From assembly GCA_973895155.1 (NCBI GenBank), contig OZ316899.1, positions 13,085,934-13,149,933 on the forward strand: a stretch of 64,000 bases of DNA, given 5' to 3'. Source of the DNA: Marsupella aquatica. Lineage: Eukaryota; Plantae; Marchantiophyta. The translations under genes were made by a program, and so were the position numbers. Shown in pieces: positions 20,301 to 44,668 of this stretch; the first letter of the stretch is position 1, and every line of letters begins with the position of its first letter. The notes under the pieces were generated by a model that worked only from the letters and a program-made list of their open reading frames with translations, did no database searches and was not told where the DNA came from.

Positions 20301-21624
20301 AAGCTCTTCTGCCTCCCATCTCCACTCGACTTGCCACCTTTCATGGGACAATCCTTACTCTGATGGTCCATGGCAACACATGTGAAGCATGAGCCTTCTA
20401 CCCGCCTCGTCTCTATGAGTGCTTGCTTTTTCACTTCTTGCACCGACAAGGGTCCTTTCTTAAAGTTGTTGGTTTTTTGGTTGCACTTTGCATCTCCATT
20501 TTGGGGCTGAGGATCCAAACTACCGGCCCCACCCGCCTCGAGCTGCTTGCGCTTGTTTCCGGGACCTTTTGCTTTCCTAGCTTCCCCTTCAAATCCCTTG
20601 CCACTCACCTTTGCCAAGTCCGGTCGGTTATTCACGAGCGTAGTGGCCTTGTCGAAGGTGTCAAAAAGTGTTTTAAACTCATGACGCTTTTCCTATAACT
20701 TTTCCCTGAGCAACGGTGGGAGCTTCACTATAAAGTTGTGAAGCTGCGTATGTAGGGTTTCCTGCCCCTATGGGATCTACATGCCAATTGGTTCTAGTAA
20801 TAAGTAATGAACTTTTGGATATCACCCTTGAAACTCATCTCCGGTACACATTTTTGAGCGTGTCGCTCTAGGTACTTAGTGGTGACATGAGCATGAAGAC
20901 CCTCAACCAGGTTTCCCCAAGTTACTGGCAAGGAGGAGTCCTTTGACTCGCGCCTTCTTCCAAGACTTGTACCAAGTCAAGGCATAGTCTGTCAGGTAAG
21001 GAGCGGCTGCGGTAGCCCCAGTGGAGCGTTCAGATTGGAGATGAATCTCCGTTGTGGAGAGCCAACTCAGAAACTTTTGTCCACTTTGCTTGTAGGCCCC
21101 ATCATAAGTTGGAGGAGTCAGTAGCTGGTTCACTTGGAACATACTCCGTCCAACTACCATTTCCCCCCTCGGGACGTGACACACTCTGACTACCTAGACT
21201 TAGTCAGTACTTAATTTGGGTCCCCTTGTTGTGTTCCAACTACTCATAAATGAGACGTTGGTGTTGAGTCAACGATCCCAAACCGTCGTCAGCGGTTGGG
21301 ACCTTGCGGGTTGTGTGAGGATAGTCATCAAATCATCTATCCTTAGGTTCTCATGTGGATTTTGGTGACACCCCCCGCAATTTGCGGGCACCGTGACCTC
21401 CTAGGGCTATGGCATCACCCTCATCACCCTGGTTATGCTTGGTCAAATTATCCACAATGGCGTCCAACTCAACATCATCCTCTAGTTCTACGTCCAACCC
21501 TCTTAAGGTAGGGATCAATCCCTCTTTTGGGTCCTGACCCCCTCCCTCTGATTTGACTTCCAAATTGTTGTCTTTCTTGTCTGAGTCGGTGTTGTCGTCG
21601 CTTGACTTGTCCTCTAGAGTACCG

Positions 21625-22703
21625 TGTCGTGCGCATAAACATTGCTACACAACATACATCGCTTGTCACACATATCTAAGCATAGTCACAATCAACATCA
21701 CAAACATAAGAGAATGGAGTACAAGTGGAACTCCTATACACACATGTCCAAAACCCACAATAAATCTTCAAGAGCAATCAAACAGCGATTGATGCCAATC
21801 AAACACACAATCTTGCTCGATGTAATCACACACTTATGTCAAGTCAAACACACCTTGCGCCTCAAGGAATCCACATTACGTACACACAACCTAGACAGCC
21901 ACACGATAGCCGCTAGAGTTTGTGCTCAAAAGGCTCAACATCAAAAGATGAGACCTTTGAGCCAACACAAAGAGATATAACTATCCCTCACAAGTTACAT
22001 ACACTAACCCTAAAACACTTAGATAACACACATATGAAAGCCTCAAACCTACATAGTCCGATATCCTATACTACCACTCATAATGGTGTGACAGTTGTCG
22101 TGCGCATAAACATTGCTACACAACATACATCGCTTGTCACACATATCTAAGCATAGTCACAATCAACATCACAAACATAAGAGAATGGAGTACAAGTGGA
22201 ACTCCTATCCACACATGTCCAAAACCCACAATAAATTTTCAAGAGCAATCAAACAGCGATTGATGCCAATCAAACACACAATCCTGCTCGACGCGATCAC
22301 ACACTTATGTCAAGCCAAACGCACCATGCGCCTCAAGGAATCCACATTACGTACACACAACCTAGACAGCCACACGATAGCCGCTAGAGTTTGTGCTCGA
22401 AAGGCTCAACATCAAAAGATGAGACCTTTGAGCCAACACAAAGAGATATAACTATCCCTCACAAGTTACATACACTAACCCTAAAACACTTAGATAACAC
22501 ACATATGAAAGCCTCAAACCTACATAGTCCGATATCCTATACTACCACTCATAATGGTGTGACAGTTGTCGTGCGCATAAACATTGCTACACAACATACA
22601 TCACTTGTCACACATATCTAAGCATAGTCATAATCAACATCACAAACATAAGAGAATGGAGTACAAGTGGAACTCCTATCCACACATGTCCAAAACCCAC
22701 AAT
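21625..22703 (-). repeat. 3' terminal array of the DNMT-gypsy: B1-A2-B2-A3-B3 with a 471-bp period
   Basis: Full 469-bp TG...CA units at 21625-22093 and 22096-22564, separated by GT, plus a partial unit at 22567-22703. Confidence 0.95.
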
Positions 22704-22714
22704 CGCCCCCCTAG
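22704..22714 (-). other. Polypurine tract candidate
   Basis: Minus-strand TAGGGGGGCGA immediately precedes TTGTGGG, the start of repeat B1. Confidence 0.6.
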
Positions 22715-22874
22715 CTGGGAGTGAGGTCCCCTAACTCTAGCTAGCCACAAGTTCTACAAGGTTGGTATACACTTTTTTAAGTGTGAAGATCAGGAGGCCG
22801 GGTAAGTGAGCCCCATTGATCACCTTCCTGCAATCTATACTTTCCATGAGAACACAAATGGTAACTAGTCGGCT

Positions 22875-24583
22875 TCACCGACATTGAGGACACAACCATG
22901 ATCCGCTAGGAATCACCTCCAATGGTGGTGTCAAACACGACATGTGCCATCCTCTAGAACACTTATCACAAATCAACATAGTGGGTGCTCCTTGAGCAGA
23001 TCCACACAACATACACTTCAAGCCGGCACGAACCTGAGCCAAGCTTGGATCTACTGTACCATCAATGTTTGAAAGATGACATGGTGCACAATTGCGTACA
23101 TGATCCTTCCAAACCATACCATCACGTCCTTCCAACATTAGGACACCAGAAGACAATACTTCACGCACACATAAGATTGTTCGACCTGCGGTCACATCAA
23201 GTGTCGTTGGTGCTGTTTGCTGCAAATAAACAAAATCACCAGGATGAAACCGTCGAATCCTCGCACGATAACCTCCTCCACGAATAGTGGCATACCTCAA
23301 AGTATCACGATGTTGAGCAATGGCAAGGTTTTCAAAGGCCATGGGCATGACTCTCTCAAAAACTTGTGCCCTCTCTGAACACACCTTGACCCAAACATCA
23401 GGATCATCCAAATCCACAACAATTGCCACATCACGACCAGCAAAGTCCAAACTCCATCGATATCCCAAACCCATTATTGGTAATGGATGCAATTGGGGAG
23501 TGGGAGCATTGAATGATGCTCGCACTCGATCACATACCACACACTTAGCAATCAATTGTTGGACATCAGTGCGCATACCACGCCACCAATATTGTGTTTG
23601 CAACAAGCTATATGTGCATTTCACACCAAAGTGCCCCAACTCCTTGTGCGCATGTCGCACCAAACGTACTCGTTGTGACGGTTTTGGTACAACCAACACC
23701 TTGCCATCACGTAGTATCCTCAAAAGATGGTTTCCTTCCCATCAGAATCTCTTAGCTCGTTGTAGAACCCTATCTCGCTCCTTAGCATTACAATTGCCAA
23801 CAATGGAGCCACCACGCAAATATTCCAACACTCTCTTGTCGTTATGAATATCTTGTTGCCCAAAAACTACCTCATCAACATCCAAATCTGAAGATTCAAC
23901 GTCTACCCCATCCAATGAAGTAGAGTCCATAGATCCACTATATGTTGGAACCCAAAAAAGAAAGGCAGATGCATGCCATCCTGGCACACTCTCCTTATTT
24001 GACTCATCATGCCATCGAGCTCTAGTCTCATCCTCTTGACTGGTACATGGATTACGGCTCAACCCATCCGCATCCAAGTTCACTTTACCAAGCCTATGTA
24101 CAACCTGGAAATCATACTCCTGTAACAACAATGCACATCGTGCAAGCTTCCCTGTAAGCTTGTTAGACTCCATTAACCACTTGAGGGGCTGGTGATCAGT
24201 GATCAAGGTGAACGGATTACCAAACAAATAGCAACAAAAATGTGCCACAGCCCACACTGCCGCCAAACACTCTCCCTCATACGAGCTATACTTAGCCTCT
24301 ACTGAATTGTTTGATCTACTGGCATACGTCACAACAAACTCATTCCCCTCATCATCCTTCTGAGTCAGTACTGCTTCAAGTCCTAATCCACTCCAATCAG
24401 TGTGTAGCTGAAATGGTCATCCCAAAACGGGTCTTCTCAAAATAGGTGTTGACACCAATCTTTCCTTCAACTCTTGGAAAGCATGCTCTTGGTCGTCACC
24501 CCAAATCCACTCCTGGTCCAACTTAGTGTGTATAGTTAAAGGCTTAGCAAGTTGGCTAAATCCTTTAACATACCGTCTATAAT
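22875..24583 (-). pseudogene. 3' part of Pol: RT end/RNase H, integrase (catalytic core deleted) and C-terminal PHD finger
   Basis: YASRSNN..YSSYEGECLAAVWAV..TDHQPL..DADGLSR (RNase H); HKELGHFG..CVVC (HHCC); WSLDFAG followed by a jump; CMLC..ICDKCSRGWHMSCLTPPL..GSWLCPQC (C4HC3 PHD). Confidence 0.9.
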
Positions 24584-25544
24584 CACTACAACATATTTGA
24601 CACTTTTGCGAAGGTATTTTTGTCGACGCTCTTGTATTTCCGATGGGCGGCGCTTTGCATATTTTGCGAATCAACCCGCATCGCAATTTGCGATTCTATC
24701 CCTATCGCAAATATAATAGCTGAAGCGCATTATATCGCTAATAAATTGCGAAGTAAGTGGTTTTGCAATTTTTACCGAAATGCGTCGAATGGAAAGGCAC
24801 CTTCCGAAGACGGAAAAATCGCTCGCCGACTCCGAAACTAACTCATGTAAATATTTGCGAAGAATATTGGATTGAAAATGTTTTGCGATAGTAGTTGTTT
24901 GACAAGTTTAAGAATGTCGGAGGATGGAAGATTTGCGAAACGCTGAAAATATGAAATTTGTGATTGATTTTGCATCACAAGTTTGCGAAGAGTGTAGTAT
25001 GGAAATATTGAGAAACGAGAAGCTTCATATAAATTGCGAGTCCGGTGAGAGTTTGTGAGCTTCGCAAATTGTTCGCAAACTAAAAATTAAGGTTATTGTG
25101 AGGTGAGACAATGAAGAGGGTGGATGGTCCAATATATGGATGGGGCAGGAGGGAAGAGGAAGGGAGGATGGAGGGAGGTACAATGAAGGATGGAAAAGGG
25201 AGGGAGTACAATGGAAGAGGAAGGAGGGAGGAGAAAGAGGAAGGGAGGAGGAGGGACAGACGTACCACGGAGGAGGGAAACACGAGGGTGAGAATGAAAA
25301 TTATGGAATAAGTAGGAAATAAAGTTATATTGAGCAACAGAGGTTAGATAGAAAGTTGCATGTAAAATTCATAAGTGATCACAAGAAAACAATACAATAC
25401 ATATGTCATGAGTATGACTCATTCAAAAGTGAATGGCAAATATAAATATAGACAATCCTTTTTTTTATATCACCAAACATGAACAAATCAAATATAACAT
25501 GAACAAATGTCTAGGCTGGACCCAAGTGCATATAAATATGTCCC

Positions 25545-28500
25545 TCACACTTGGTCCTCATCGGCCTCAAGGTCATCTAGGTCTGATACAATAACATCTG
25601 GCTTCTCAGAAACAATGGAACGAGAACGTGGCACATAGGTGATGACAATTGACCACTCGGTGTCTAAGGGGTATGGAATGTAGAAACATTGCTCCAAGTG
25701 TGATGGGAAAGCAAATGGTTCTGACGTTTGCCAATGAGATGCTTGAACACTAGTGGCACTTGTCTTCAACCGTGTAAACCCACTCTCATCTTGAAGTACA
25801 GTGCAATTTTGACCAACAAGGTTCACTTTGAACCACTTGCACTTGAAGACATATTCCTCAAACTTTGAATGGTTGTCATATGATACCACCAAGATCTCCT
25901 CTATCTTCCCATAGTGTGGCACAACATCTCTAACAATGTTCCTGTCATGGCGGCTGCTTCTGGAGTCTTGAGAAAATTCCCCTTGAACTCCACAATCAAA
26001 AGTACGACCCCTCTTCTCATCAAGGGAAGAAACCCTAAAATTAACAAAACCCACAAATTTTTATTACACTGTAAAAGATACCATTAATGTAATAATCATC
26101 AAAATATGACACCCATCCCTAAATAGCCAAAACCCACATGGCCTATGGCATAAATATAGAAGCCAACATTACAGTTATGGATGTCATTAATGATAATAGA
26201 AAGTTTTTAAACAATAGAAATAACTAATCAAAATAAGGTCTACATGAATTAATTGAGGAAGAAAGGTTAGGTACTAGTGGACCTGAAGTGTCTCCCTTGT
26301 GTCCACATAGCCGTCTTGGATGTCACCACTCTCAAAGGGCCATGAACAATGGTCCGAACGTCATCTGTGATGGTAGGAAAGTGGGACACATCTCCTCCTT
26401 GTGTCACCATGTCATCCAACTCAAGCAACTTTTGCTTCATATACTCATGCATCTTAGGAAAAATTCTTGCTCTTTGACTTGTTCTCTTGGCATTCTCATA
26501 AAACTCTCTCCATTTCTCCATGATATTACTATTACTCAACATAAATGTTGTCAACTGTGACCACTCTGTTGATGTCAACATGCGTGTTTTTGTGGCACCT
26601 GTTAAACGGTCCTCCTCCTCTTCTCTTTCCTCCATCCAAGTACGTGGACAAGTAGGATCAATGGTGGCCAAGATGTTACTACAATAAAACATACTCTCTG
26701 CTGCCAAGTATCCTGTAGCTATGCTTCCCTCCACCCGTGCACGGTTACATACATAAGCCTTCAACACCGCCATGTAATGCTCAAGCCAATACATCCATCT
26801 ACAATGCACTGGACCTGCAATGGCAACCTCCCGCACAAGATGCACAAGTAAATGAACCTGACAATCAAAGAAGGAAGGAGGAAGGGCTTTCTCCAACTTG
26901 CATACCACCTCAGCTGCCAATACCTCCATCCCAGGGATCTCTTCTACATATATCTCCTTTGAGCATATCCATCTCAACAAACGACCCAATGACCAGATGG
27001 CATCTTGCACTTCTTCACTCCCTATACCTATAATTGCCACTGGCAATATATGCTGCAATAGGCGATGATAGTCATGTGTCTTCAGATATCGTGGCCACTT
27101 GTGATTGTCCTCCATCCCAAAAGCTTTTCGAAGGTTGGCACCATAGCCTATAGGAAACCGCATCTCTCCTATACGGTTCCGAAATTCACGTCTTTGGCCA
27201 ACACTCAACACCCAAGGAGCAGAAGGACGATTCTCCACACCTGTGATAGGATCAATTGTCACCCAAACATCTGGATGCATTTCCATCTCCTCGCATGCCT
27301 CCCTAAAATTAGTGTCCTTCTCCCCATAAAAATGCTTTATCAAAGCCTTCCCCACATTTCCCTCTATGTGCATGGGGTCTAAAAGATGGCGGATCTTCAA
27401 CTCAGACCAATAGGGCAAAGTGGCTAGTATACTCCACCTGGTCAAACCTGTCCTATCAAAGGTGAAGGAATCATTTGAGTCTGCCACCCTATTAGCTAGT
27501 GACTTCCAATGTGCAAAACTTGTTGCATCAGGAATTTCACGCTCATCACCAAATGGCATGTCAAAGGAGGAGAATAGAAGTGGGTCAAACCTCATCTCAT
27601 GCCCCATGGGAAGAAACTTTGTATGCCCAATATAAACAATCTTTCTAATCCATGAACAATATGTGGCCATGTCCTCTAAGCTTGGGCCACAAGTAGAGCA
27701 AGCTTTGTACCCCTGAGTTTGCAATCCAGAGACAAAACCAAACCCTGCTTACATAGAAGAAATCAAACCATGCAAACTTTATGTTAGGGTTGTCACATGA
27801 GAAACATCAATAGGAACTACACATTATTGAAGGGTTGCAAATGGCATGGAAGTCATCTTACCAGGATAGTCATGCATTGTCCAACAAATGATCCCTCTCA
27901 ATTGAAAGACACGTGGAAAACCTCCTGTAATTTTCCTGCCATCATATGCCCACACTCCATTCCATAATTTTTGAAGTTCTCCAACCAATAGTGCCAAGTA
28001 AGTGTCAAAGTTCTTCACCTTTTTTGGACCTGGGATAATCAAAGACAATAAAAGGAACCCCTTCTTCATGGATAGCCATGGTGGGAGGTTATAATTCATG
28101 ACAACCACAGGCCAAACTGATGTAGGTTGCCCCTTTCCTCCAAGTGAATGAGGGCTAACTCCATCAGATGCCAATCCTAGCCTCACATGGCGAGGATCAT
28201 GTGCAAAGTCTGGCCATGTTGCCTCAATATGTTTGTGAGCAGGGGAGTCAACTGGCAACCGCATGACACCAGACTCTGATCGATGAGTCTTATGCCATAC
28301 CATCAACTCTGCCAAGTCAGAACACCGATACATGTGCAACAACCGAGGAATGATGGGAAACCAACGAACAGCCTTCCTTGGCACCTTCTTTGTTAGCATG
28401 TTGGGGTCATAGCGAGGCTCATCACATGTTGTACATTGTGTCATGTTTGCATTGGCCCCATGAAATAACATGCAATCATTCACACATGCATGAACAATAT

Positions 28501-30364
28501 GATATTCCATGCCAATAGATGAGAGAACACTCTTTGCCTCCTTCCAAGTTGCTGGCAACACATTCTCAGTGGGCAACATAAGGTCATGGCAAAGTGCAAA
28601 CATATCAGATAACAAGGCATTGCTTGCCTTGTGTTTGGCCTGTAGGTTCATCAACCCCAAGATGGCTGAAAGACGACTCAAACGAGCACCCTCATAGATA
28701 GGTGTTCGGGCATGTTCCTCTGCTTCTTCCCATTGGCGTTGTCCCTCAGGGGTATGCCTTGGGCGTGGATCATTGGGGGGCACCTGCCCTTCATTGGGAA
28801 GGTCATCACCAAGGTTGTCGGCACCAAACCAATCAACCATAAAGTCATCCATGGCTCTATCCTGGTCATCAGTTACTTGTTCATCCGTCCGAGGTACCTC
28901 TTCATCAGGGTTACTGCTTCCACTAGCACTTGATGAGGAGTGTGACTCTGATCCATGTCCTTCTTCTGGCATACCCATTTCTCGATATGTTGCTCTCAAT
29001 CTCCGTGGTAACATATTTGGAGAGGGTCGCACATTCTAAAAACAAAGCAAACAATTGAAAGTTATATTGCAAAGAGAACACACACAAAAATGGGCTAGGG
29101 GTGTGCAAAAATGAAATAATATTGGTTGTGGTGCAAATACAAAATGTGGCCAAAGGCCATATGTAGTGCCCTTTGATATGCAACATACCACCTATGACCC
29201 TTAACTTAACCCTAATCCCACTCATAGTGAGTAAATAACTCATCCTCTGAGTTAATGGTCCTTGTTGCTACAACTAGGCAATGGTCATGATGATATGTCT
29301 GGCCATAAGGTGCTGGCGGAGGACCCTCAATGAAAACCCACTCACAATTTTGCCTACGCTTAGGGCGAGTCCCCACGGTACTGTTTATGAAACCAGCAAT
29401 ATTCCCAGTCCGTATGGGGTCCCCATCTATGACACGCTGCTCACTATACCTTCTAGTGTTTCCATCAAAAGTATCCATGTCCAATGCATAAGTCTTCCAC
29501 TCAGGGTGTTGTGCAAGGATCATGTTCCAATGTCTTCTCTTGTAGATGGGTCCACCATAAGGAAACAAAGTAGGCCCCTCTCGGCCGCGTCCACCTCTAC
29601 CACTCTCGGCGTCCACAATGATGTCCTCACAGGCAAAAACTCCATAGCCATGTCTATCCCCAAGTGTGGAAGGTTTGATAACCCAACGTCTACCCCAAAC
29701 CTCTACCTCCGCACCGTAGGAAAGCTGTTGTGGCAAACCAAGAGTCTCAGGATCCCAGTCCTTGATGATAGGGACACATCTGCCAGTGAACTCACAATCA
29801 CCCCACCGACCCGTAACCACTGCCTTGTACAAATCAGTATCCCCTCGGGCCCGCCTCTTGGAACGCTTTCTCCCTCTTGGGACAATAGCCTCAACCCCAA
29901 CTTCCCTAGGACTGGTGGGCCTTGCCGCTAGACCCAAGGCTTTTGAGAATGCATTGCCTATAGCATCTAGAACACCTTGTGATGGGACATAGGGTGCTTG
30001 TGCCGCAGGTCTAGGCCTATTGGATACCTATTCCACCGAAACCAAAACAAACAAAAGTAGGTGTGAAATTGCAAACCTTCAACCATTGAGTAATGGGAAT
30101 AGGGTAGGAAAACTAAGGCATAACACTTACCATATGAGATGAAGAAGCCCCTGCCGTATGACGTCCACAACGCCCATATCTCTCAATATGTTGGGCACAT
30201 ATGTAAGATTTTTGGGAAACCTGACCCACACATCTGGAACATTCACAAAGTTGACGGGGTGGACCGCGAGGAGAAGGTGCGGTCGTGTGATGTTGAGGTG
30301 GAGGTGGTGTATCTTCATCAGAGGAGGACGAGTCTGTGGTGGAGATTTCAGAAGATGAAGACAT
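25545..30364 (-). CDS. CACTA transposase (TnpD/Tnp2-like), 4 exons, 1119 aa, open frame
   Basis: Exons 30364-30131, 29035-27862, 27744-26283 and 26034-25545, all GT-AG and phase-consistent (3360 nt). Motifs CECSRC..HIERYG, HACVNDC, LASDGVSP, YNLPPW, DYPG, LDPMHIEGNV, LKTHDYH, PPSFFD, GPVHCRWMY. Confidence 0.9.
29212..30027 (-). CDS. SET-domain (lysine methyltransferase-like) exon inside intron 1 of the CACTA transposase
   Basis: IKPSTLGDRHGYGVFACEDI, FPYGG, IDG..GNIAGFINS, NCEW, VVATRTINSEDELFTHY. Polypyrimidine tract and AG acceptor before 30027, in phase 0 with exon 1; the spliced product is 349 aa. Confidence 0.85.
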   Translation of the reverse strand, partial: VSNRPRPAAQAPYVPSQGVLDAIGNAFSKALGLAARPTSPREVGVEAIVPRGRKRSKRRARGDTDLYKAVVTGRWGDCEFTGRCVPIIKDWDPETLGLPQQLSYGAEVEVWGRRWVIKPSTLGDRHGYGVFACEDIIVDAESGRGGRGREGPTLFPYGGPIYKRRHWNMILAQHPEWKTYALDMDTFDGNTRRYSEQRVIDGDPIRTGNIAGFINSTVGTRPKRRQNCEWVFIEGPPPAPYGQTYHHDHCLVVATRTINSEDELFTHYEWD

Positions 30365-31663
30365 ATCCCCTGTAACAAGATATAATTAAAATGGGCATGT
30401 TATGACCAAAACATACCACAAAATGATATAAATCAAAGTTCCCAAATAATGATGACAAGAAACCCAAACCAAAATGACCATAGCAATAAAAAAGGTACCT
30501 TTATGAGACCCGGGCTCAGCAGTGCCAATAGCTCTTGTGGCTCTAAGATAATTAATGAACCCAATCTAAAAGTATGAGGGAAAAGCTGCAACCATTCCAT
30601 GTATATGTAAGCACAATAATCTGGACCAGACAAGAACAAAAAACCCTATATACATGTCCCCTTTATACATAGTGGCAACCAAAAGTGTTAAGTACATGAA
30701 AGGAACACTTTAGCCGATCATGCAATGTTTACCTTTCAGATGCCCGGGCTCTCACAATGCATATGCATTAGTATCAAATCATCAAAAAGTGCCGCACCCT
30801 GCAAGCTATCATATATTCCCCTCCTTTGTTAGCAAAACCCATGCCAATCCCCTTTTGATTCATAAACCCAATGAACCTCTCTTAAACCCAAAAGGCTGCA
30901 ATATAAATCTCATGAAACCTTGCTTTGTCTTATCCAAACCTTCAACCCCAAACCGCATCCTACCTATTAAACCTAAATCTGACTTACACACAAACCCAAA
31001 CCTTTCTTCAACCCTAGAGACCTTTCTATTTAAAAACTCCAAACCCTAAAACCCTAAACCCAAACCTTACTTATTTCTTGTAAACCAAATCCCACACCTT
31101 TATTATTTCTTCTAAACTAATGTAAACCCAAACCTTAGCCTAAACCAACACCATACATAACCCATTAACCTGAAATCTGCCTAACCCTTCAAACCCGCCT
31201 TCAACTATTATCTAACACCCAAAACATGGCCAAAAAGCATTCCAAATATGAGTATAGAGGGGTCCACTTCACCTTTGAAAAAAAACCTTTCAAATGAAAC
31301 CAACATTCCCCAAGGACGAGTTGCCAATGTCTTGCGAAGCCGCTTCCTTCGCAAATACCATCACAAATTAGAATTGAAGTTTGCGAAGCTACTGCTTTCG
31401 CAAGACCTTCAGAAAAACAGAGCCCGAGAGCATTTCTGCGAGAGAGCGAAGGTGTTGCGAAGCCTTTCACGTCGCAATGGTTTCGCAAAATTGAGAAACT
31501 ATATACGAAACAAGAAGAATTGCAACTTGCGAAACGGGTTGCTTCGCAAGTCTTTCCCGCTTGTACTTTTGCACTCGGCCGCGGCGTACTCAGCGGCATT
31601 TGACAAATTTCAAGCGTAGGGAGGGAGAAGGGAGCTCGCGCGTGCTCGGGGGGTGGCTTGGCT

Positions 31664-33633
31664 ATGGATTCCAGTGGAGCAAATGGAGGTGATAGGGCAG
31701 GGGTGAGTGAGAGTGGCAATGGGAATGAAGGCAATGGGGAGCAGGAGAGGAATCGATGGACCGATTTGATGGCTGAGCACCTCAATGCAGCACAGTTGAG
31801 CCACTTAGATTTGACTACACCAGCAGGGATTGATTCTTTGAGTGCAATCCTTGGGCAAGCCTTGCAAACGGGAGTAGATGCAGGGAACATTGCAAGGGAG
31901 GAGGAGCAAAGGAGTGCAGCTCAACAGAAGGCAAGAGAGAAGAAACGTAAGAAGGAGGAGAGGGCCAAGGCAGGAGTAGTCTCACCTGTTGCCCTAGAAA
32001 AGAAGAGGAGGAGAGAGGAACGAGATGAGATAAGAGCACAACGGGAGGAGCAGCGAAAGAAGGAGGAAGAGAGGAAGAAGCTGCCTATGATTGCCTTGAT
32101 CGAAGGCATTCCTACTGAACTGGCCTACACCGGGGCAAAGAGCACTATCAGGCTTATGGTGCGCTCCAATTTTGCACGAGGAGTTGAGTGGGGGAAACTC
32201 AGCAAGGCAGACCAGAAGAAAGTAATGAGTCAAATCAAAGATTCATTTCGAAATGGAGCAGAGATTGATGAACAGTGGCTTGCAGATAGAATTTCCAATT
32301 CAATGTCTCAAGCACGGTACCATGATAGGAAGAAGGTAAGGGCCTACCTGGCAAACTTGGAGGAGAACAGAAATGTGAGGAGGCCACTGCAATTCACTGA
32401 GGACGTGTGGAATGCCTTTTACAAAGTGGAGGTGCAGATGAGAGCTGCCAGGAACCTTCTCTTCTGGAAGGAGATGGAAGCCAAGGCACAGAAGGCCGGG
32501 AAGTCCGACCGAGAGCTCAGGCAATGGCTGAGAAAGTGTCTCACATGCAGCACATTGTGGATGAAGTGGGTGCACCACCCCAAAAATTCATCCTTGCAGC
32601 TGAGCGAGTCAGCAAACGGCCCAAGACCACGCACAAGATGGGCCAAGGTGGACTTCCCGGCCTCAAAGCACACTTTGTGAGTGGGCCCTCTCCTCTCCTC
32701 CCCTGCTTCTGTTTCCTTGCTTTCAATTGCTATCCAAACCTGCAATGCCCCCCCTGCATACCTCTTGTTTCTTTCTTACGGCCTGCCTTGTACTTTAGGT
32801 CACCCTGACACATTGCGTGCCTTAGAGATTTCTCGGAATTTTTTAAAAACAGAGTTTGCGAAGCTTTTGCGATGCGGGTTGCTTCGCAAATGTTTCGCAA
32901 AGTCTATCATGGCAGTTTTTAAAGTTGTAAATGCGAAGCTATTGCGAAATAACTCGCTTCGCAAACTACTTCGCAAACAGCCAATTTATTTGAATTTGCG
33001 AAGTGGGGAGTTTCGCAAGTGTGTATTATGTTTTAAAAAAACCGCTAAGGGTTATTGAGCCCAGTTTTGTGTTAGGGGGCACCCTATTAGCACCTCCATG
33101 CATTTTTCTTGGGTTTATAGCATATTAACCTCGATCTATTTTGGTTTTGGAATGTTTGGTTGTGGTAGTATAAGAGGTACCGCAGGAAGATAACAGCAAA
33201 AGAGATGGAGATAGGAGCTGCGCATGGAGCCAAACATCTCTTTGACTTGGTTGACGCAGAGTTGGCGACTGTAAGTGCATGTATCCCCTTCAGTTTTTCC
33301 CACCCAATCCACTTATCTTTTCATTCCGTAAACCTAAACCAATTTGGCGTTGTGCTGTGCAAACAGGATGATGAGGATGCCAGTGATACCAGCAGCACCG
33401 ATGAGAACAATGAGGGGACCACGACAAAGGGGCCCAAGGTAGGAGGGAGTAGTGGATCTGGACTAGTAGGAGGAGTTTCCCAGCAGGAGGGGGAGGAAGA
33501 GGATGAGGACGAGGACGAGGAGGAACCAGATGTGGAGGAGCAGCCAGCACCACCTCCTGTGCCACGTCCGGATCGTCGCAAGAGGGACAAGGGGAAGAGG
33601 CCGGCGACAAGGAGTAGGAGGACCCCATTCTAG
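31664..33633 (+). CDS. CACTA second gene (TnpA-like), divergently transcribed, with an apparent frameshift near 32515
   Basis: Exons ~31664-32676, 33169-33270 and 33367-33633. Motifs RPLQFTEDVWNAF and HKMGQGGL resemble En/Spm TnpA-type proteins. Acidic and basic tail. Confidence 0.6.
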
Positions 33634-34316
33634 AGCTTGGTGGTGTAGTGCCTATGGGATGCCCATTTACTTAGTGTAGTATATAGTTTTGATATGGGTA
33701 GTCTTATAGGGACCTAGCTTGTCATATGACACCCATCTAGGGTTTAGGGTTTAGGAAACCCTAATTTTTGTGTACCTATCAATTTTCTATAAAGCAATTT
33801 TGATTCAGACCTCATTCTCCGTGTTGGACGACAAGACCCCAACCATAATTCAAAACTCTAAATCTAAACCCTAGCCTCAAGACATCTTGCGAAACCTATG
33901 CGAACAACCCAATTCGCATATTTACCATATTGAAGGTATCGCAAACATTATGCAAACCACATACGTTCACAAAAATGCGAAGCCATGTTCATGGCATAAC
34001 TACCATTAACTTAATATCGCAAACCGATTACCAAACTTATGGGATTGCAAATATTTAACTGCTTGATTATTATCGCAAGCCTCTCGCGACGCCCACGGAG
34101 TCGCTTAAATGTGAGTCCTTTGCGATTCTATTAGTGTCGCAAGTTGCGAAGGCGTTGCGAAGGTCTTGCAAAAGACCGGATGCGAACCTTTGGGCTTCGC
34201 AGTTTGCGATTCTATTGCGATGCGCGATACTTCGCAAAGGCGAGTTTTGTTTTTTGATTTCCTTTGTTGTTTGCGATGCTTTCAAGTTCGCAAAAGGTGT
34301 GGGTAGTGTTGTAGTG

Positions 34317-35200
34317 AATAGCTCGCCAATCCCAAGAATGCACGAACTCTACTCACATTGGTAGGACAAGGAATCTGTGTAATGGCCTCCACCTTAGTCT
34401 CTTGCACACCCAATCCTCTTGGGTAGATAGTGTGGCCCAAATACTCAATTTTGTCTTGGAAGAACTTACATTTTCCAGGATGGAGTTTCAACCCATGTTC
34501 TCTCAATCTCTCCAACACAATTTGCAAGTGTCTATGATGTTCTTCCACCGTAGCAGAATAGACCAAAATGTCATCAATGTAACATCTCACAAAATCCAAA
34601 CCTGCAAGAATTCAATCCATGACTCTTTGGAATTCAGCCGGTGCATTCTTCAACCCAAATGGTAAGAACAACCACTGATACAGACAATCTTTGCCATAAG
34701 AATCAATTCCCCAAAATGTTGTCTTGGATCTATCAGAATGCCTAATTGGCAACTGATCAGCCTGAATCAGTTTCAGCTACACACGACCGTTTCAGCTACA
34801 CACAGCATCAAAGATCTCCTTTGGTGTGGACATGGCATATCAATCAGATTTTGTTTGACAATTAATAGGTCGATAATCACCACACATTTGCCTATCTGTG
34901 TAATTGCCATGCACATGCTTCTTGGTTGACATCACTGTGGCAGATGCATACTCCCCATATGAGATCTCCACTAGACCAGCCTCCAACAAATCCTGAGTTC
35001 TACTCTGGATCAAAGCCCTCTCCATGTCACTATACCGATACGGTCGTCAAAAGATTGGCGCATCACTAGCCAATTTGATCTAAATACCAGGATCCTTCAA
35101 TGTCCCCAAATCCTTCATACTAAATGCAAAATAGTTCCAATAACTCTTCAAGAATTGATGCATGTGACGTCTCTCTCCCCCGGTCAACTTAGGACCAATT
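34317..35200 (-). pseudogene. Reverse transcriptase of the DNMT-gypsy element
   Basis: LLEAGLVE..YASATV..MCGDYRPIN, LPFGLKNAP, CYIDDILVYS (~34570), KLHPGKC, EYLGH; frameshifted. Confidence 0.92.
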
Positions 35201-35479
35201 TGTGGTTCCCAAATCTCCATCAAAGTTGTGACATCTTCCTTTGGGGTTGAAGAGGCCACTGACCGTGGGTCGTGGGTGGAAGAGATACTCGCTCGTTGCT
35301 ATTTATCAATGGTTTGAGCAAGCTTCTTTTGCTCCACAATCTGTTCTGACTTGGCCAATCCTGCCATAGGTCCATCAATAGTCTGCTCGCCCCCAACTGT
35401 GGTCGCTACTATCTCAGTAGGCCGCAAGCTCACCAAAGGATGATTAGTAACATCATTAGTGCGCATTCGCACCTGTTCA

Positions 35480-36440
35480 GCTAACCCCAAGCTGATAATC
35501 CAAGTCAAGCAATTCAAATCCATGGCTTGACCAAGGACTTGACGACGTGAATTCTCCAAGACCGAGGCCACTGCCGTGGTGTTGGTCAAAAATCCCATAG
35601 CCCGCTTTCTCTCATTAGCGGTAGGCTCTACTAGTTGTTGTAGAGCTGTATCCCACACAAGTCCAGGGCCACCTGCTCGAAATGCGTATGAAGCAGAATG
35701 ACTCACAAAAGTGGGTAATGCATAACGCGGATGCCCAACAACATTCACCACTGCCAATGGGGGTCGATCAGATTGGGTAACACTTTGTGCACGACGCCCT
35801 GGATCCAAAATATCATCCACCACTAAGGTTGTCAAGCGAGTAATACCATCAAATGCTTGCTTTAACACCTCACATGGTAACAAATTAGTCCACCACAAGC
35901 GTGGACGATGTGCACGGGAACCCACACATGCAACATCCAATAACACAGCAGGCCAATCAAAGATTGAACCTGATGAACACTAGCAACAATTTGATGACGA
36001 TCATCACCCAATAGTGGCACATTCTCTAAAATGTATGCAGGAGAATGTGTCTGATGCAATTGGAGATAACGCAATGCACGTAACATCTCCCAAAATAGTG
36101 TAGATCTTGGATCACAAAATCCATGTCCAATTCCAGCCCGAGATTGACCCTGACATGGCCAACCCGCAATCACCAAATCAATGGGGCCAACACGATCCAA
36201 ATGATCCGCCCCCAATAATGAAATATCAGCAGACAATGCATGCTGATAACCATGAACGGCATCCACTGGCAACAACTATGGATAACATTCCACCAACATC
36301 GCTACATGACGTAGTGAGATCCTCTGTGTTATCTCATCATTTTTCACATACAAGTAACGACGCACAGGAATTCCTGCTTGAAGAACAACAGCCAATCCAG
36401 TGCTAATCCCACCAAATAAATCCAACAAACAAATACCCTC
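35480..36440 (-). pseudogene. DNMT3-like C5 cytosine DNA methyltransferase domain within gypsy Pol
   Basis: Motif I LLDLFGGISTG; IV DLVIAGWPCQG; VI YILENV; VIII AHRPRLWWTNL; IX ERKRAMGF; X RRQVLGQAM. One TAG (36276) and one frameshift (~35945). Confidence 0.92.
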
Positions 36441-36799
36441 CTCTGGATACTGCCACGCAATAGGAGTGGTATCCAATGGTGAAAGGGTCACCGGTCCATC
36501 TACAAAAGACTGTTGTGCTCTTGACTCTGGTGTGAAAGCATGACGCCATGCATCATGTATCAATTGGGCCGCATTTTGTTGCAAGGCCTCTCCAGTACCC
36601 CATATTGGTGCCACAATAGGCAGGTAATACACTCATCATGTGTTCTTCACGTGGCTCCTCCATTGCCGGAACATCTGTTGCATGTGCGTTACCTTCAATC
36701 AAATCATCAGATCCAGTAATCAAACTACTGAATGCTTCCAAAGACAATGGTGCAGATTTAGGACCTCCCACCGGTCCACTAAATTGCACTGGCAATCGG

Positions 36800-37200
36800 C
36801 TCAATTGAGCATCTCCAGATTGCCAATTGGGTTGATATGACACCGACTCATCCCAAAAATCAAGAACAAATCCCATAGGATAGAGTACTATACATCCCAC
36901 TAACACATTATATGACTCAGCCTTAGTCAAAATAGCTTGAGCCTGGATCCGTGAGTTATCCTTTGGATGATCCTCTTGAATCCTAAGTTCAAGTGCTCGT
37001 CTGGTGATATGTTGTTTGGGTGTAGGTCCTCCCAATGAAGTCTAAATGGGAAAGGGACACTCCTCCAAATCATCTGGACGCAATCCCAATCCTTGTATCG
37101 CAGACTTACCCAACATCAAGGGCTGAGCACCAGTATCCAATAACACTCGTTCTGGCTGGTATATTGCTCCAAAAGGCCCAACTAATCAGAAGATATCACT
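36800..37200 (-). pseudogene. Aspartic protease of the DNMT-gypsy element
   Basis: RVLLDTGAQPLMLG (DTG at ~37129-37137) and downstream YNVLVG. Confidence 0.85.
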
Positions 37201-37300
37201 CCGATTATCCAATGATACCACACTAGGTTTAAACCTAGTTCTCTCAAAGGCAGGGCGGGCTGGTAACTCCATCAACCTCGTCGTTGCTGCTTGCCATGTT

Positions 37301-39200
37301 TCACCATTGTCTAGCAATAGGTGGAATCAACTCCACAACTTCAGATTCATGCATTGTCTCTGCATGAGAAGCAACAACTGGAGTGTCTTCACATAATGTG
37401 GCCGCCAATTTGAACACTTCAATTGGACTAACTCCCAATGCCAATATATCTGTTGCTGAAAATAGCGGGGTGCGCACAATGTTTGTGGCTGCCCCCAACA
37501 AGGTACTTTCCCTTGCTACAACATCATCCGAATCTACCAACTTATCCACACTTGGATTTATCTGAATCGGATTCATAGAGGTAGTTTGAGCTGCCTCTAA
37601 CAATGTAAACGACTGGGGAAGCTTCGTTTGTCGACGAGCCTCCCCCCTTTGAGGATCCAACTCTACCATTGCTCCTCTGGGCTCAAGGGCTTTGGTTGCT
37701 CCTTGAGTTAAAGTTGCCGATGCATCAACATGGGCAGTGCCACACATGAATCCCATGGTGGCCAAGTCTCCGTCAGCTCCATAAGATGTAGAAGCTCCAT
37801 CACCAGAAGTAGGTCTAACCTGAGAACTGGCCATGGCAGCTAGTTGTTGCTCCAATTGAGCAATCTTTGCATCCTTTGGATCTATGGTAGTGGCAGGAGC
37901 ATCACCTCCTTGTCTCCCTCCATATGGCATCCCTCGTCCACGACCACCACCTCTACCTCCTCTTCCTTGATCATACATACACGATCCTCCCCGTCGTAGT
38001 TCAGGATGGAGTATAAAACACCTATCCTTGGTGTGACCAGAAACTCCACAATGATCACATAATCGTTGATTGGGCATAGATGCCCCTCCAGATTCTCTAT
38101 TATCTGGGCAATATCTTTGTGCATGATTTCCACCACAAGTCCAACATCCTGATTGCTGTCTAGCATAGGAGGGCACAGGTCTCTGACTAGTAGATTCTCG
38201 TGTTGTAGGCTTCTCCCTCTGGCTCTTCCTTACAGTAGGTTGCGGTGTGGGTGTAGATGCAACCTTTGGTGAGCCTTCCTTGACAAATCCAGAAGTCACC
38301 ACCTTCTCATTCACCATATTGAGCTCAATGCGCTTAGCAAGTGCAAAAACAACAGCCAATGTGGGATCTGAATCCCTCAATAGAGTGGCGTCTCTTACTC
38401 TACGCTGCAACTCTCTATCCAAAATTGCATACCAAAATTGAACTGCTTGGGCCTCCGTCACTCCCTTGGTGACAGTAATCAATCTTTGCATACAAGTGTA
38501 TGCTTCGCGTAACTCTCTCCAGTCTTGCGCTGAAAATCTTGAAGACCCATCAACTTATCAGTTCTCACACCTTGGTAGTTCTGCTTCAACACATCAAAGA
38601 ACTTCACCACAGGGTTAAGTGTTTGGCACAACTCCACTCCCACCCACAATTGTACCGATAGGAGTAACGGTGGATGCTGGTGAAGTGCCACTCTGGCTAG
38701 TGCTACTAGAAGAAGCAACAGCTGGAGCAATAGGTTGAGAAACCGCACTTGTGCCGTAAGTGATGGACACATAGTTTGGTGACCAATGTTATCTCCATAT
38801 CTCAATGTCAACCAAATGGGTCTTCTGAAACTCATGGTAATCATCCATGGGTGGACCTTCCAAATGTTGAAACAACCCTTTCCATGCCATGAAAGGTGTA
38901 AACAATGTGGCATTACGCATTGTTTGCATATCACACCACATATCAAACTCTTGGATGAAATCATCCAAATCAATTGTGCCAACTGCACCTGAGTATCTCC
39001 TAGGGCCCTTAGTGGACCCATACGTCTCCTCCATATCCCACAACAATGGTACAACTACCTGATGATGAGGAGACTTGGTTACCAAGTCCTCGTTAGAATC
39101 GCTATCTGAAGCTCCACTGGTAACTGCTAGCAATGTTGTTGGTCAAAATTGCACTCCACTTCGAGTGAAACCGGTTGGTCGTTCATCCGCTAGCCATGCA
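37301..39200 (-). pseudogene. Gag of the DNMT-gypsy element
   Basis: YSGAVGTIDLDDFIQEFDMWC; two zinc knuckles CWTCGGNHAQRYC and CDHCGVSGHTKDRC; RGG-rich tract; frameshifts. Confidence 0.85.
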
Positions 39201-39309
39201 TCACTAGGAGACTCCGTTGGAGATCCTTCTCACCACCACACACCTGCAACACAATGATATCTCACAACACCATTTCTTGTAAGCTTCAATGCTTCCAAGA
39301 TGATCTCTC

Positions 39310-39685
39310 ACAAACCATGGGTCGTGGGTACCTGCCTACCCAGGCACACCCAAATCACTCACAAGCCGTGGGTTGTGGGATATCTCCTCACTCAAATCGA
39401 AACCTCACGGACCGTGGGTTGTAGGCTATCCGCCCCCACACACAATATAATCAAGACCCCTCACAGACCGTGGGTTGTGGTACCTGCCTACCCAGGCACA
39501 CCCAGATCACTCATGAGCCGTGGGTTGTGGGATATCTCCTCACTCAAATCAAAACCTCATGAACCATGGGTCGTAGGCTATCCACCCCCAAACACAAAAT
39601 AATCAAGACCCCTCACGAACCGTGGGTCGTGGGTACCTGCCTACCCAGGCACACCCAGATCACTCACAAGCCGTGGGTTGTGAGC
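39310..39685. repeat. Tandem repeat in the 5' leader: ~152-bp unit x ~2.5, built from ~50-bp subunits sharing CCRTGGGTYGT
   Basis: Units start near 39316, 39467 and 39620. Confidence 0.85.
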
Positions 39686-40334
39686 TCACTACTCACTCAA
39701 GTCAAGCGCAAAATACGGCGAAAATTACGGACAAAGTACTATTCCCTAATTTGTCATTTTCTCTGTGCCCTAAGTCACAGCCGCACCTCGCCTTTCCGCA
39801 GTGCCTTCTCCATCGCGCGTCGACAACACAATTCACCAACATTCAATGTTGTTTCCTTCATAGAAACGCACTATCCATCAACAAACAACTTGATGCAAAT
39901 CAAATTGCATCCTACAACAATTGTAAACACATTCAACTATCGGGTTTGCAATTGAACCGCCTCAATCATAACCACAAAGAGTCGTACATCCGACTACTTT
40001 CCCTTCACAAAATATCAGCCAATGCCACCGCCTGACTCGCACATAATTGTCGACAGCAACATCCGCTTGTCGATTACACAATCAGTCCTCCACGATGCAG
40101 CAACGCATATCGATGAAGACCGCAACTCCAAAACCGCAACTTAGCAACAACAACTTGAAGCTTCACTTCCACACAAGCACCGCACCAACTTGCAATAGAT
40201 TGAGATACCAACGATCCGTTCAATAACAACACCCGATCCGAGCTACCACGAATCGTCAACAACAAAACCAAAATGAAATCAAACTTCTGTCTGCACAGTC
40301 CGCACAACAGAGTTTGAAGCTGATCTTTTGATGT

Positions 40335-40662
40335 AATCTTCAAGAGCAATCAAACAGCGATTGATGCCAATCAAACACACAATCCTGCTCGACATGATCA
40401 CACACTTATGTCAAGCCAAACACACCTTGCGCCTCAAGGAATCCACGTTACGTACACACAACCTAGACAGCCACACGATAGCCACTAGAGTTTGTGCTCA
40501 AAAGACTCAACATCAAAAGATGAGACCTTTGAGCCAACACAAAGAGATATAACTATCCCTCACAAACATACACTAACCCTAAAACACTTAGATAACACAC
40601 ATATGAAAGCCTCAAACCTACATATTCCGATATCCTATACTACCACTCATAATGGTGTGACA
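40335..40662 (-). repeat. 5' terminal repeat A1 of the DNMT-gypsy (only the A part of the 469-bp unit)
   Basis: Near-identical to 21763-22093 and 22234-22564 (3-bp deletion, a few substitutions). The B part is absent here. Confidence 0.95.
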
Positions 40663-40984
40663 ACTGGCCGCCTCCTTCCCTAAGATCGACAGCGCTCTGC
40701 ACTTGACATATTGGCTGCCGCGGCCGCCATGTCGTCCTTGTCTTGCTTGTAGCGTTTATCTAGGGAAGTGGACCCATCCTTCTATTCTTCTTGAACTTGA
40801 GCCTTTCCCTTGGCGGGAAGAGCCTTCCTGCCACTCTTTGATTGAGTATCTTATCCATGTCTCCAGCAATCCGCCCACAATTGACCCTCTGGGCACATCA
40901 GAGCACTAAGTCCCCGCAAATTTCCACCAAGAGTTTTGGATTCTGACCTAGCCCAACTCCGACCCAGTGTCTATGCAAACAATT

Positions 40985-40996
40985 GCTCTGATACCA
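40985..40996 (-). promoter_or_regulatory. Primer binding site (tRNA-iMet) of the outer gypsy element
   Basis: Minus strand reads TGGTATCAGAGC. Confidence 0.9.
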
Positions 40997-40999
40997 CAA

Positions 41000-42570
41000 G
41001 TGGTGGACCTTGCCATCCAACGCCCTCACTAACCCCAGCGCCCTCACCAACCCTAGCCTAAGTGCCCCTGGTGCCCAAATGCCTCCACAAAACTCCTTGA
41101 GCAAGCAGCTCGATGCCCCTTGCACCATTTGCGGCCACTCCCATACAAAGCCGCACTTGCTCCCTAACATGATCGTTGCTCAACAGTCCTCACTGTCTGC
41201 ACAAGCAACCAAGTACCTCGATAAGTAAACCGACATGATCTAGATCTCCCCAAGTTTAGCATCCTAACTCAAGCTCAACAGACATTGGTAAGTAGGTCAG
41301 CAATAGGTCCTCCCGTTGCCATAAGCCAAAACCAAAGCCGACACCCACTGTTCATCTAAAACAACCTCTCTTTGGGTGTGGGCCAGGTTTCCCCTTGTAC
41401 CTATCCATCACCAATTGACTGCCTTGTCCCTAAGACATGCTCATGGCCCAAGTAGCGTAGCTTGTCCTAAAGCTTGTCCCAAGCTTGCCCCAACTTGTTG
41501 GGACCAAAATGGCCCTGACTCTAGCAACCAACTCCTGGTTCTCATCCCATTGATGGCCTAGGGGCCAAGTGCCCTTGGAACTCAACCTCCATGCCTCTAC
41601 TTGGACTTGCTTCCTCAACACAAGTTCCCTTGGGAGACTGAATGCGGCTTGGCTGCTATTTCGATAGGATTTGGCAAACAGGTGAGATAGCCCCCGCAAA
41701 ACCTGAGAACCCATGGCACCTCTAGCCCGACTGAGCTCTGAAGGATATAGTCCTCCTCAAGAGCTTCCCAAAACCCAAGAAGTCCTCCAACGGATTTCTC
41801 ATTGGGCAGTTCTCGCCGTTTCTGTTTGATATTTTTCCTTAGTGTTGCGACCGCCGCGGCTCATGACTTAGGCTCACCCTTAGCCCCCAGGGAGACACCA
41901 CTCCCCTCATATATGCTTTTGGAGACCTGCCACCCCCGGACCTACTTTGGTCCCCAAATTTTGGCCCCCCACCTAGACCCCAACCCGCATGTCTGGGCGC
42001 GCCACCAGTTGGCTCTGCCCATAACTTTATAGTTAGGCGTCCGTAGGCGGACTGCTTTAGCCCATTGTGATCAGGCCGGCCCAGTGCTCATGCCAAGGCC
42101 CTCAAAACCCGTTGTCGCTTGGGACCCCCTATCGGCCAAATTTGGGTCAGCCCGTAACTCGTGCCCCAAGCGTTCGTTGCCATGGAGTAAACTCCACTTG
42201 CATTGGGCCCAGTGGAGCTCTCAGAACTCAAAGTCCGTCTGGGGGTCCGGCCCTTTCCCTGACCCGACCAACCCTCTGCTAGTCTAAGTCCTTAGTGTGT
42301 GTCACCAGCTTAGCGCCTTGCCTTTGCCAGTGCCACGCCCATTGCCCACAAGTCTCCCCATGCTAAGTCCTCCACGGATGGCCGTTCCGGGCTTGGACCA
42401 TAGGGGAGCTCGGCGTTGGAGTAAGCGACGCCAAAGCTAAATGTTAAGGTATTCGAGTTCCACGATTGCCGGTCATGAGGAGTTTGCTACTCTGACTATA
42501 GTCTCTAAATCCCTTGTTTAGTTGCCCTCTTTTGGGGGCCTCAGCTTCTTCCCTGGTTTTGGCCTCAGCA
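41000..42570 (-). repeat. Probable 5' LTR of the outer gypsy element; far boundary uncertain
   Basis: Non-coding GC-richer block directly upstream of the PBS; no second copy in the window to confirm it. Confidence 0.35.
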
Positions 42571-43590: not shown

Positions 43591-44668
43591 GGACCCTGGA
43601 GGGCATTAACTTGATGTAGATTTAACCCATGGTGAAACCCCACTCGCCCTCCTCTCGTAGATACCGATCGAGGCCAGCGAAGGAAGTGAGGTAAGGGGGT
43701 TTGAGGGCTATGTACTCTTACCGAAGGACCATGGCAAAGGCCAATAGCCTTTATGCTTGTTATCTCTATCTACTAGCATAAGTAGATATCTATCTCTCTG
43801 TCTATATTGCTATCGGGGTCGAGGGGTATCTTGGGGTAGGGCAAATCTCCTGTCAAATACTTCGCTACTGCCGCTGGCATCTAAAGGAAAGGTCACACAT
43901 TCTTCCGAGTCATGGTCGTGTGATGGTTTTTATCCTTTCCCCTGCAAATGGTCCACCATTATTTGGTTCTAGCTCCGGTGGTCTTGAAGAAATGACTCGT
44001 TTGCTGCCTCATTTGCTTTCAGTGCTCTGTGCTTGTATCCATATGGCTTCGTTCTATTGTCTTGACTTCGTATCGAACCGCGATAGCAGGCTTTGCCGGC
44101 AACCGCTCGTACAAACTCAAAAACACGGACGGAAAGAAAGTTTCCCAAAATTTTCAATGTCTGTTCGCAAATTTTGGAGCCTTCCCGGTCCTTGTCGAAA
44201 AAGATGTTGAATCTTTGTCTGTGGGAAACATCCTCGATATAGTCTCTCTCATTTCCATCTACTCTGCATTGCTTTCATTCTCTATCATATTGGTGTCTCT
44301 GTGTTGTACATGTTTGAAGCGCTGTTTTGACATCTTCCTGTAGGTCGTTTGGGCTGTAATCTGTGTGAGTGCACTTAAACTGCAGCGTGCCGTACGTAGC
44401 TCCACCTTCACTTGATCCAGCTCTTTGTAAGAACCACTACTCAGCTTCATCAGTGTGCCGCAGTGCTGGCCGCACCTAGTGTCGTGGTGGATTCTCTCAA
44501 TCTAATTCTCCCATGTCCCAGACGACACCGATATCAATGCGACTTGAAAGGGAAGTAACAGGCAATCCAGATACGCTCGCTTAGCCGGGCTACGAACCGG
44601 GAAGAGCATGTTGTGGGAAGTGTTTGATCACGTCAGAGTTCGGGTGCTGCCACCATAGCGTGACGACT

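Follow-up and report, generated by a model that had tools for sequence, protein, structure and literature searches.

Why would a retrotransposon carry a silencing enzyme? The question is raised by a 64,000-nucleotide stretch of the genome of the liverwort Marsupella aquatica (contig OZ316899.1), here called the window, in which an original prediction made from the letters alone had seen a DNMT3-like cytosine methyltransferase (DNMT) fused into a gypsy Pol between protease (PR) and RT.

The methyltransferase of the window copy

The motifs of the enzyme proved to be arranged as predicted, in linear (nonpermuted) order and without an intron, and all of them lie on the minus strand.

35482..36443, minus strand: DNMT3-like C5-cytosine methyltransferase, motifs I to X linear; broken by a stop (36276-36278) and a frameshift near 35950
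36425-36408, minus strand: motif I, LDLFGG
36164-36147, minus strand: motif IV, GWPCQG, catalytic Cys intact
36026-36018, minus strand: motif VI, ENV
35913-35881, minus strand: motif VIII, AHRPRLWWTNL
from 35613, minus strand: motif IX, ERKRAMGF
35547-35512, minus strand: motif X, RRQVLGQAMDLN

Both lesions that had been noted in this copy are real. The catalytic PCQ, ENV, and the Arg of motif VIII are present; in motif II, the acidic residue has been replaced. The Pfam scan proposed as a check on the prediction was positive, with PF00145 matched at 35865-36275 (E value, 2.8e-12; 47 bits against a cutoff of 22); the two flanking DNMT pieces had no Pfam match when scanned alone and are 64 to 78% identical to intact homologues. 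For one such homologue, P0002 (77% identical), the closest PDB sequences were DNMT3A, DNMT3B, and DNMT3C, with E values of 4e-11 for DNMT3A, 1e-6 for DRM, and 5e-5 for M.HaeIII. The predicted fold of the relative P0007 (pLDDT, 86) matched DNMT3A with a TM score of 0.82 over the target, and its top fold matches were all DNMT3 (Foldseek E value, 1e-18); a fold of P0002 built from 17 sequences was of low confidence (pLDDT, 43) and was set aside. By PDB sequence and fold matches, the retroelement DNMT is nearer to DNMT3 than to DRM, DNMT1, or bacterial enzymes, which upholds the DNMT3-like character first assigned to it. It shares linear motif order and fold with host DNMT3 enzymes (PpDNMT3b [PMC6453930] and animal DNMT3A/B), from which it differs in being intronless, about 21% identical to DNMT3A, and devoid of PWWP or ADD domains.

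The host element in the window

The DNMT lies in a decayed Ty3/gypsy element that occupies 21625-40662 on the minus strand and is interrupted by a CACTA transposon. Its features are as follows, in the direction of the element.

40663..40666, minus strand: 5' target-site duplication CAGT; the 3' copy, CGGT, differs by one base
40335..40662, minus strand: terminal repeat A1, 328 bp, starting with TGTCA
40551-40548, minus strand: TATA-like box inside A1
40521-40510, minus strand: predicted transcript start and self-primer inside A1
40323..40334, minus strand: primer-binding site (PBS), 12 nt, perfect complement of 40521-40510; predicted self-priming
39302..39703, strand not given: 152-bp tandem repeats in the 5' untranslated region
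37358..39034, minus strand: Gag with two CCHC-like knuckles, decayed (five stops), 46% identical to residues 1 to 564 of Marchantia P0005
36619..37302, minus strand: aspartic protease (LDTGAQ at 37140) plus linker; PF13650 found on the homologue P0002
35296..35301, minus strand: conserved amber stop plus CAA, end of ORF1 (Gag-PR-DNMT); predicted read-through site
34320..35217, minus strand: 5' part of RT with YIDD present, several stops, and a small deletion near 34790
24584..34316, minus strand: CACTA (En/Spm) DNA transposon in the RT region, with a 3-bp duplication AAT; foreign to the gypsy element
23745..24580, minus strand: end of RT, RNase H (RH), and linker (PF17917; E value, 3e-32)
22875..23741, minus strand: integrase (IN) zinc-binding domain and C-terminal PHD finger; most of the DDE core deleted here
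22704..22717, minus strand: polypurine tract (PPT) directly before B1
22567..22703, minus strand: repeat B1, 137 bp, ending with CGACA; a 2-nt spacer separates it from A2 at the near-palindromic internal att junction
22096..22564, minus strand: repeats A2 (22234-22564) and B2 (22096-22232)
21625..22093, minus strand: extra repeats A3 (21763-22093) and B3 (21625-21761); element end CGACA at 21625
21621..21624, minus strand: 3' target-site duplication CGGT

The window copy is dead. In addition to the lesions listed, its protease region has two stops and frame shifts at about 37305 and 36615; the RT downstream of the DNMT is still recognized by PF00078 (E value, 1.9e-16). Repeats A1 and A2 are identical at 318 of 328 positions, a divergence of about 3%. 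The CpG ratio was 0.43 in the coding region, 0.49 to 0.57 in the neighboring DNA, and 0.60 in the DNMT part, figures that do not separate methylation by the element's own enzyme from methylation by the host. The predicted location of the DNMT between protease and RT was right, and the single Pol ORF was not, since ORF1 closes after the DNMT at a conserved TAG-CAA stop.

A high-copy family in bryophytes

A search with the DNMT returned 34 longer proteins, including many Marchantia polymorpha gene models, two proteins from Calypogeia, and two from Sphagnum, and some of those gene models additionally contain RT and RNase H. All 55 loci obtained by scanning metagenomes belong to one family, with identities to a Sphagnum protein of up to 91%; they include repeated insertions (L010/11, L021/45, L034/35, and L040-42), so that counts among them are not independent. 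The domain order in these loci is Gag-PR-DNMT-RT-RH-IN-PHD, and protease and RT flank the DNMT wherever the contig is long enough, the exceptions being deleted copies such as L030 and L044. The catalytic Cys is retained in 31 of 32 loci and the Glu of ENV in 29 of 32. Contigs of sister copies revealed a high-copy family in two organisms (711 to 4577 contigs per run), and in four runs contig depth was alike over PR, DNMT, and RT, with no major joint skipping the DNMT. The search for intact copies, another proposed check, was successful at the protein level, with intact ORF1-type proteins (e.g., P0002 and P0005), and unsuccessful among the 55 metagenome loci, none of which has ORF1 fully open.

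The original prediction had named an independent insertion with termini of its own, absent from sister copies, as its possible undoing; the DNMT is instead present in sister copies, has no termini of its own, and is integral to the element. That it is an unrelated host gene or pseudogene which landed in one retroelement copy was considered and rejected: dozens of loci have the DNMT in the same position, as do proteins from three genera of bryophytes, the tree of the DNMT agrees with that of RT, and we found nothing in support of such a landing, the probability of which we regard as negligible.

Both trees were built with FastTree, that of the DNMT with 110 rows and midpoint rooting, after exclusion of 24 partial or redundant proteins and all those with fewer than 250 profile columns, and that of RT with 47 rows and one unrelated gypsy element as the root. 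The bryophyte clade had a support of 1.0 in each, apart from a group with the DNMT after RNase H. The phylogeny that the prediction had called for was obtained in part, as these two trees, and neither tree contains a Klebsormidium sequence; no protein named Klebsormidium was among the retrieved relatives, including look-ups of three clusters (30 proteins). Distant relatives with the PR-DNMT layout came from Mesostigma and Closterium, with weak support deep in the tree. The presence of relatives in Marchantia, Calypogeia, and Sphagnum bears out the claim that the lineage occurs in embryophytes, and its vertical descent from a charophyte element, expressed in that claim by the word "persisted," is a plausible reading. 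The land-plant context was likewise confirmed by the neighboring host gene.

about 44650-54256, plus strand: TIME FOR COFFEE (TIC)-like host gene, closest to Calypogeia fissa

Its conserved exon had 12 matches, the best (63% across 92% of the query) being that of the liverwort Calypogeia fissa; identity to Sphagnum was 41 to 52%, and a Selaginella match is named TIME FOR COFFEE.

Between the window and Sphagnum-type copies, the two halves of the DNMT gave dN/dS values of 0.21 and 0.10, with synonymous sites near saturation, and Gag, RT, RH, and IN gave 0.07 to 0.21 where dS was computable. Among Sphagnum-type copies alone, the values were 0.59 for the DNMT versus 0.38 for RT and were dominated by decay. 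The ratios between lineages indicate that the DNMT is under purifying selection there.

Several further arrangements were seen among the retrieved sequences. At 4206-5080 of L021 lies an older member of the RT clade without a DNMT match alongside, a case of truncation or of true loss. A separate large clade (P0254 and about 30 other proteins) has a DNMT3-like domain between RNase H and integrase and a C-terminal PHD finger; one protein with the DNMT after RNase H is from Chlamydomonas eustigma, and chlorophytes thus carry such elements too. In P0138 a related DNMT domain accompanies a copia-type RT, and in P0155 one accompanies a Dam adenine methyltransferase.

A conserved stop between DNMT and RT

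The in-frame stop at 35299-35301, overlooked in the original prediction, parts the DNMT from RT. Both landmarks were present in 24 of the 55 metagenome loci, 22 of them in frame and two frameshifted, and all 22 in-frame loci had TAG or TAA at one position. A second census, by an upstream motif, found TAG-CAA in 24 cases, TAA-CAA in six, TAA-TAA in one, and a sense codon in none, along with two regular-expression mis-hits. Among sister copies in four runs, positions 35289-35310 had no variant letter at a frequency of at least 5%, and 23 variant rows fell elsewhere in the same 161 bp. The intact proteins P0002, P0005, P0008, P0009, and P0010 terminate 58 to 80 residues past the DNMT domain, and proteins ending at the stop come from Marchantia and Calypogeia, among others; in P0116, P0216, P0222, and P0248, DNMT and RT are continuous, with no intervening stop. 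The stop is a programmed feature of the family and not a product of decay.

The spacer upstream of the stop has no tblastn match between the two lineages, though TAG-CAA is kept, and the distance from landmark to landmark is 321 nt in one versus 348 nt in the other, with the frame kept. Synthesis of RT-RH-IN-PHD likely needs read-through. UAG followed by CARYYA is a read-through signal of plant viruses (PMC4132726); the 3' context here is CAA-CGA or CAA-CCC, short of the full CARYYA. RNA structures folded 3' of the stop, without a shuffle control, differ between the two lineages, and we claim no stimulator. The stop might also be a true terminator, in which case RT-RH-IN would be made separately, through an ATG farther downstream, a promoter inside the element, or splicing of the RNA. 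An in-frame ATG does follow it in both lineages (at the third codon in Sphagnum-type copies and after about 27 codons in the window), the gag-stop-pol junction of Tca2 showed no read-through in yeast and has a minor promoter (PMC2194720), and Neumann et al. list groups with GAG-PROT in a first ORF (PMC6317226). Since the frame is nevertheless kept across a spacer of unequal length, nothing but TAG-CAA is conserved in that region, and the ATG varies in position, we consider true termination possible but rather unlikely. It is fairly probable that most ribosomes would stop after the DNMT, so that the enzyme is made and packaged at the level of Gag, and that RT-RH-IN would arise by occasional read-through. 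Whichever the decoding route, a DNMT on the Gag side would greatly outnumber RT and integrase.

Split repeats, ends, and priming

Domain order (GAG-PR-RT-RH-INT, with a DDE integrase the core of which is intact in relatives), TG/CA ends, target duplication, and PPT are those of Ty3/gypsy elements. In place of two complete flanking LTRs, the element has split repeats, laid out as A1...B1-A2-B2 in the relatives and as A1...B1-A2-B2-A3-B3 in the window. It starts with TGTCA and ends with CGACA, between 4-bp target duplications that were perfect in 7 of 10 loci; L031 also has one once its end is correctly placed, L032 and the window have one mismatch each, the duplication of L023 is eroded, and a 5-bp duplication was seen in none. 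Matching duplications also flank loci consisting of A...B only (L010, L031, L037, and L053). In all eight B-to-A junctions that could be read, the spacer is 2 nt long; the junction sequence is the palindrome GACA-GC-TGTC, with overlapping CAG/CTG sites, or a decayed version of it. A PPT-like tract precedes B1 in 19 of 20 copies of the relatives and adjoins B, not A. B was found upstream of A1 in 0 of 23 A1 copies. The idea that the 471-bp repeat is the LTR of another element split by the insertion was rejected, since the relatives share A...B-A-B, PPT, and duplication.

The PBS of the window is complementary to A1 over 12 nt and that of L010, with a sequence unlike the window's, is complementary to its A over 11 nt; in each case, 0 of 200 shuffles were as good. 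The paired site lies 30 to 31 nt behind the TATA box within A in the two lineages, and the best pairing site was at 166-168 in 12 of 23 A1 copies. Exact pairing was not significant in two of six relatives tested (L021 and L037), and no tRNA match to the PBS was apparent. A PBS after A is predicted to serve Tf1-type self-priming (the arrangement described in PMC7175516): transcription would begin in A1, about 30 nt past the TATA box, and the first 11 to 12 nt of the RNA would very probably prime reverse transcription. The element thereby resembles Tf1/Sushi and Tcn1 (PMC7175516 and PMC6317226), in which a PBS of 11 to 12 nt is complementary to the predicted 5' end of the RNA, a likeness that for the bryophyte element is one of sequence prediction. 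It differs from them in having a DNMT, split repeats, and a PHD finger, with no match to the chromodomain family at the integrase C terminus; of the marks of a Tcn1 chromovirus, it thus has the (predicted) self-priming PBS and not the C-terminal chromodomain.

Split direct repeats of the form A1...B1-A2-B2 are typical of tyrosine-recombinase retroelements of the Ngaro/PAT/VIPER type. The bryophyte element shares this layout with them and with SymbioDIRS-Dnmt3, and a DNMT3 cargo with the Symbiodinium elements (PMC5890265). Unlike DIRS/Ngaro elements, which are defined by a tyrosine recombinase and no DDE integrase, it has a DDE integrase, a protease, TG/CA ends, and a 4-bp duplication and lacks a recombinase ORF, for which six complete copies have no room (longest stop-free leader stretch, 72 to 133 amino acids).

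Integration and the role of the methyltransferase

The PBS and PPT signals would give a linear cDNA of the form B-A-internal-B-A, the ends of which carry no conserved att sites. The integrated ends lie at the internal B-to-A palindrome, unlike the predicted cDNA ends, so that cutting of the palindrome by the integrase is the simplest link between the two. We consider it reasonably likely that the integrase would cut GACA-nn-TGTC within an end-joined circle to yield A...B-A-B and within a linear or one-repeat form to yield A...B; the A...B copies could instead have arisen by recombination between B1 and B2. HIV integrase is able to cleave a palindromic circle junction (PMC1905944). If the integrase does cut the internal palindrome, DDE integration out of a circle junction would have a natural example among eukaryotes. 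Left unexplained is the absence of B upstream of A1, since a symmetric two-repeat circle should also yield A-B-A...B. Two A-to-B joints resemble end-joined circle junctions, one with filler DNA in L007 (10837-10857) and one with a PBS remnant in the rearranged copy L018 (5690-5705).

Reverse transcription of the DIRS/PAT type would give A...B-A-B ends directly, with shorter and longer forms produced by later unequal recombination and the integrase processing ordinary ends. Such a route accounts for the missing A-B-A...B copies, the repeat layout is that of DIRS (PMC5890265), and the third unit of the window shares its A-to-B junction with the second, as expected of a later duplication. However, a PBS following A and a PPT preceding B are the usual signals of an LTR and delimit a B-A repeat, and the A-to-B joint of L007 has filler DNA and an end-joined look, whereas the B-to-A spacer is always 2 nt; the DIRS/PAT-like route is in our judgment somewhat doubtful.

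As to the enzyme, the explanation that we favor with moderate confidence is that the window holds a defunct member of a Ty3/gypsy family with many copies in bryophytes, whose Gag-protease ORF ends in a DNMT3-like enzyme that would methylate the element's own new cDNA. A DNMT made at the dose of Gag and entering the particle alongside the RNA would encounter the cDNA first, which makes self-methylation of cDNA the best reading. On balance, we incline to the view that the particle-borne DNMT would put 5mC on long-lived unintegrated DNA, probably de novo in CG/CH context as other DNMT3 enzymes do, and that this DNA would arrive premarked. Self-methylation of cDNA was proposed by de Mendoza et al. 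for the algal elements, and their Klebsormidium enzyme caused no methylation in yeast, a result that the authors call inconclusive (PMC5890265). Alternatively, the DNMT might act not on cDNA but after nuclear entry, on the insertion site or in trans on host chromatin (e.g., silencing neighboring genes or rival elements), guided with the PHD finger of the integrase. The integrase does bear such a finger, many relatives, including the chlorophyte one, have the DNMT between RNase H and integrase, near the integration machinery, and plant DNMT3b methylates CG and CHH sites of chromatin de novo (PMC6453930). In the bryophyte clade, however, the DNMT lacks a reader domain of its own and lies before the stop, together with Gag, a better fit to a high-dose particle enzyme than to a targeted one, and we consider action after nuclear entry unlikely.

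DDE insertion sequences of the IS3/IS30 type integrate from a cut circle. A broader and quite speculative proposal, to which we give little credence at present, is that there may be a green-lineage-wide Ty3/gypsy class in which the att site of the integrase has moved to a palindrome inside the LTR and integration proceeds from a cut circle; a Gag-dose DNMT3 would methylate the circle, and the methyl mark could choose which att site is cut, which would explain A...B-A-B without A-B-A...B.

Relation to KnitGypsy-Dnmt3 and earlier reports

The element is of the same kind as KnitGypsy-Dnmt3 of Klebsormidium nitens, from which it differs by the conserved stop. Both have gypsy domains, an intronless, nonpermuted Dnmt3 domain under purifying selection, and DIRS-like split repeats (de Mendoza et al. 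2018, PMC5890265). The bryophyte element occurs in land plants, and while the authors put the algal DNMT in the ORF of RT and RNase H, the bryophyte DNMT is in the same frame with the conserved stop in between; predicted self-priming, att palindrome, and 4-bp duplications are features of the bryophyte element that are not in the available text on KnitGypsy-Dnmt3 (PMC5890265).

According to a 2019 paper, land plants such as tracheophytes lack transposons that encode DNA methylases (PMC6338049). Contrary to this stated absence, DNMT-carrying gypsy elements are abundant in liverworts and peat moss. We found no report of them in land plants in the literature: the available texts of PMC12344493 and 10.64898/2026.05.21.726589 say "streptophytes" and do not name land plants, while their supplementary trees may include bryophytes, and those of PMC11982613 and 10.1101/363937 have nothing on such elements in land plants. 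The Marchantia reference holds them as unnamed gene models (e.g., Mp4g09160 and Mp8g17980), which makes the question posed at the outset testable in a genetic model that has methylation mutants. Software that looks for a pair of matching LTRs would likely miss the split ends, and the family may therefore be undercounted.

Other mobile elements of the window

The DNMT element was inserted into another gypsy element (18200-21624 plus 40663-41000) that has no DNMT and carries a tRNA-Met PBS at about 40984-40997; the order of nesting is thus this gypsy, the DNMT element inside it, and the CACTA transposon innermost. Beside the CACTA transposase, an ORF at 29215-30027 has a SET domain (PF00856; E value, 5e-5, just over the cutoff), a second chromatin enzyme carried by a transposon. 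Two ORFs, at 14905-15546 and 61859-63394, resemble what we take, from the motif, to be remnants of SWIM-finger Mutator-type transposases.
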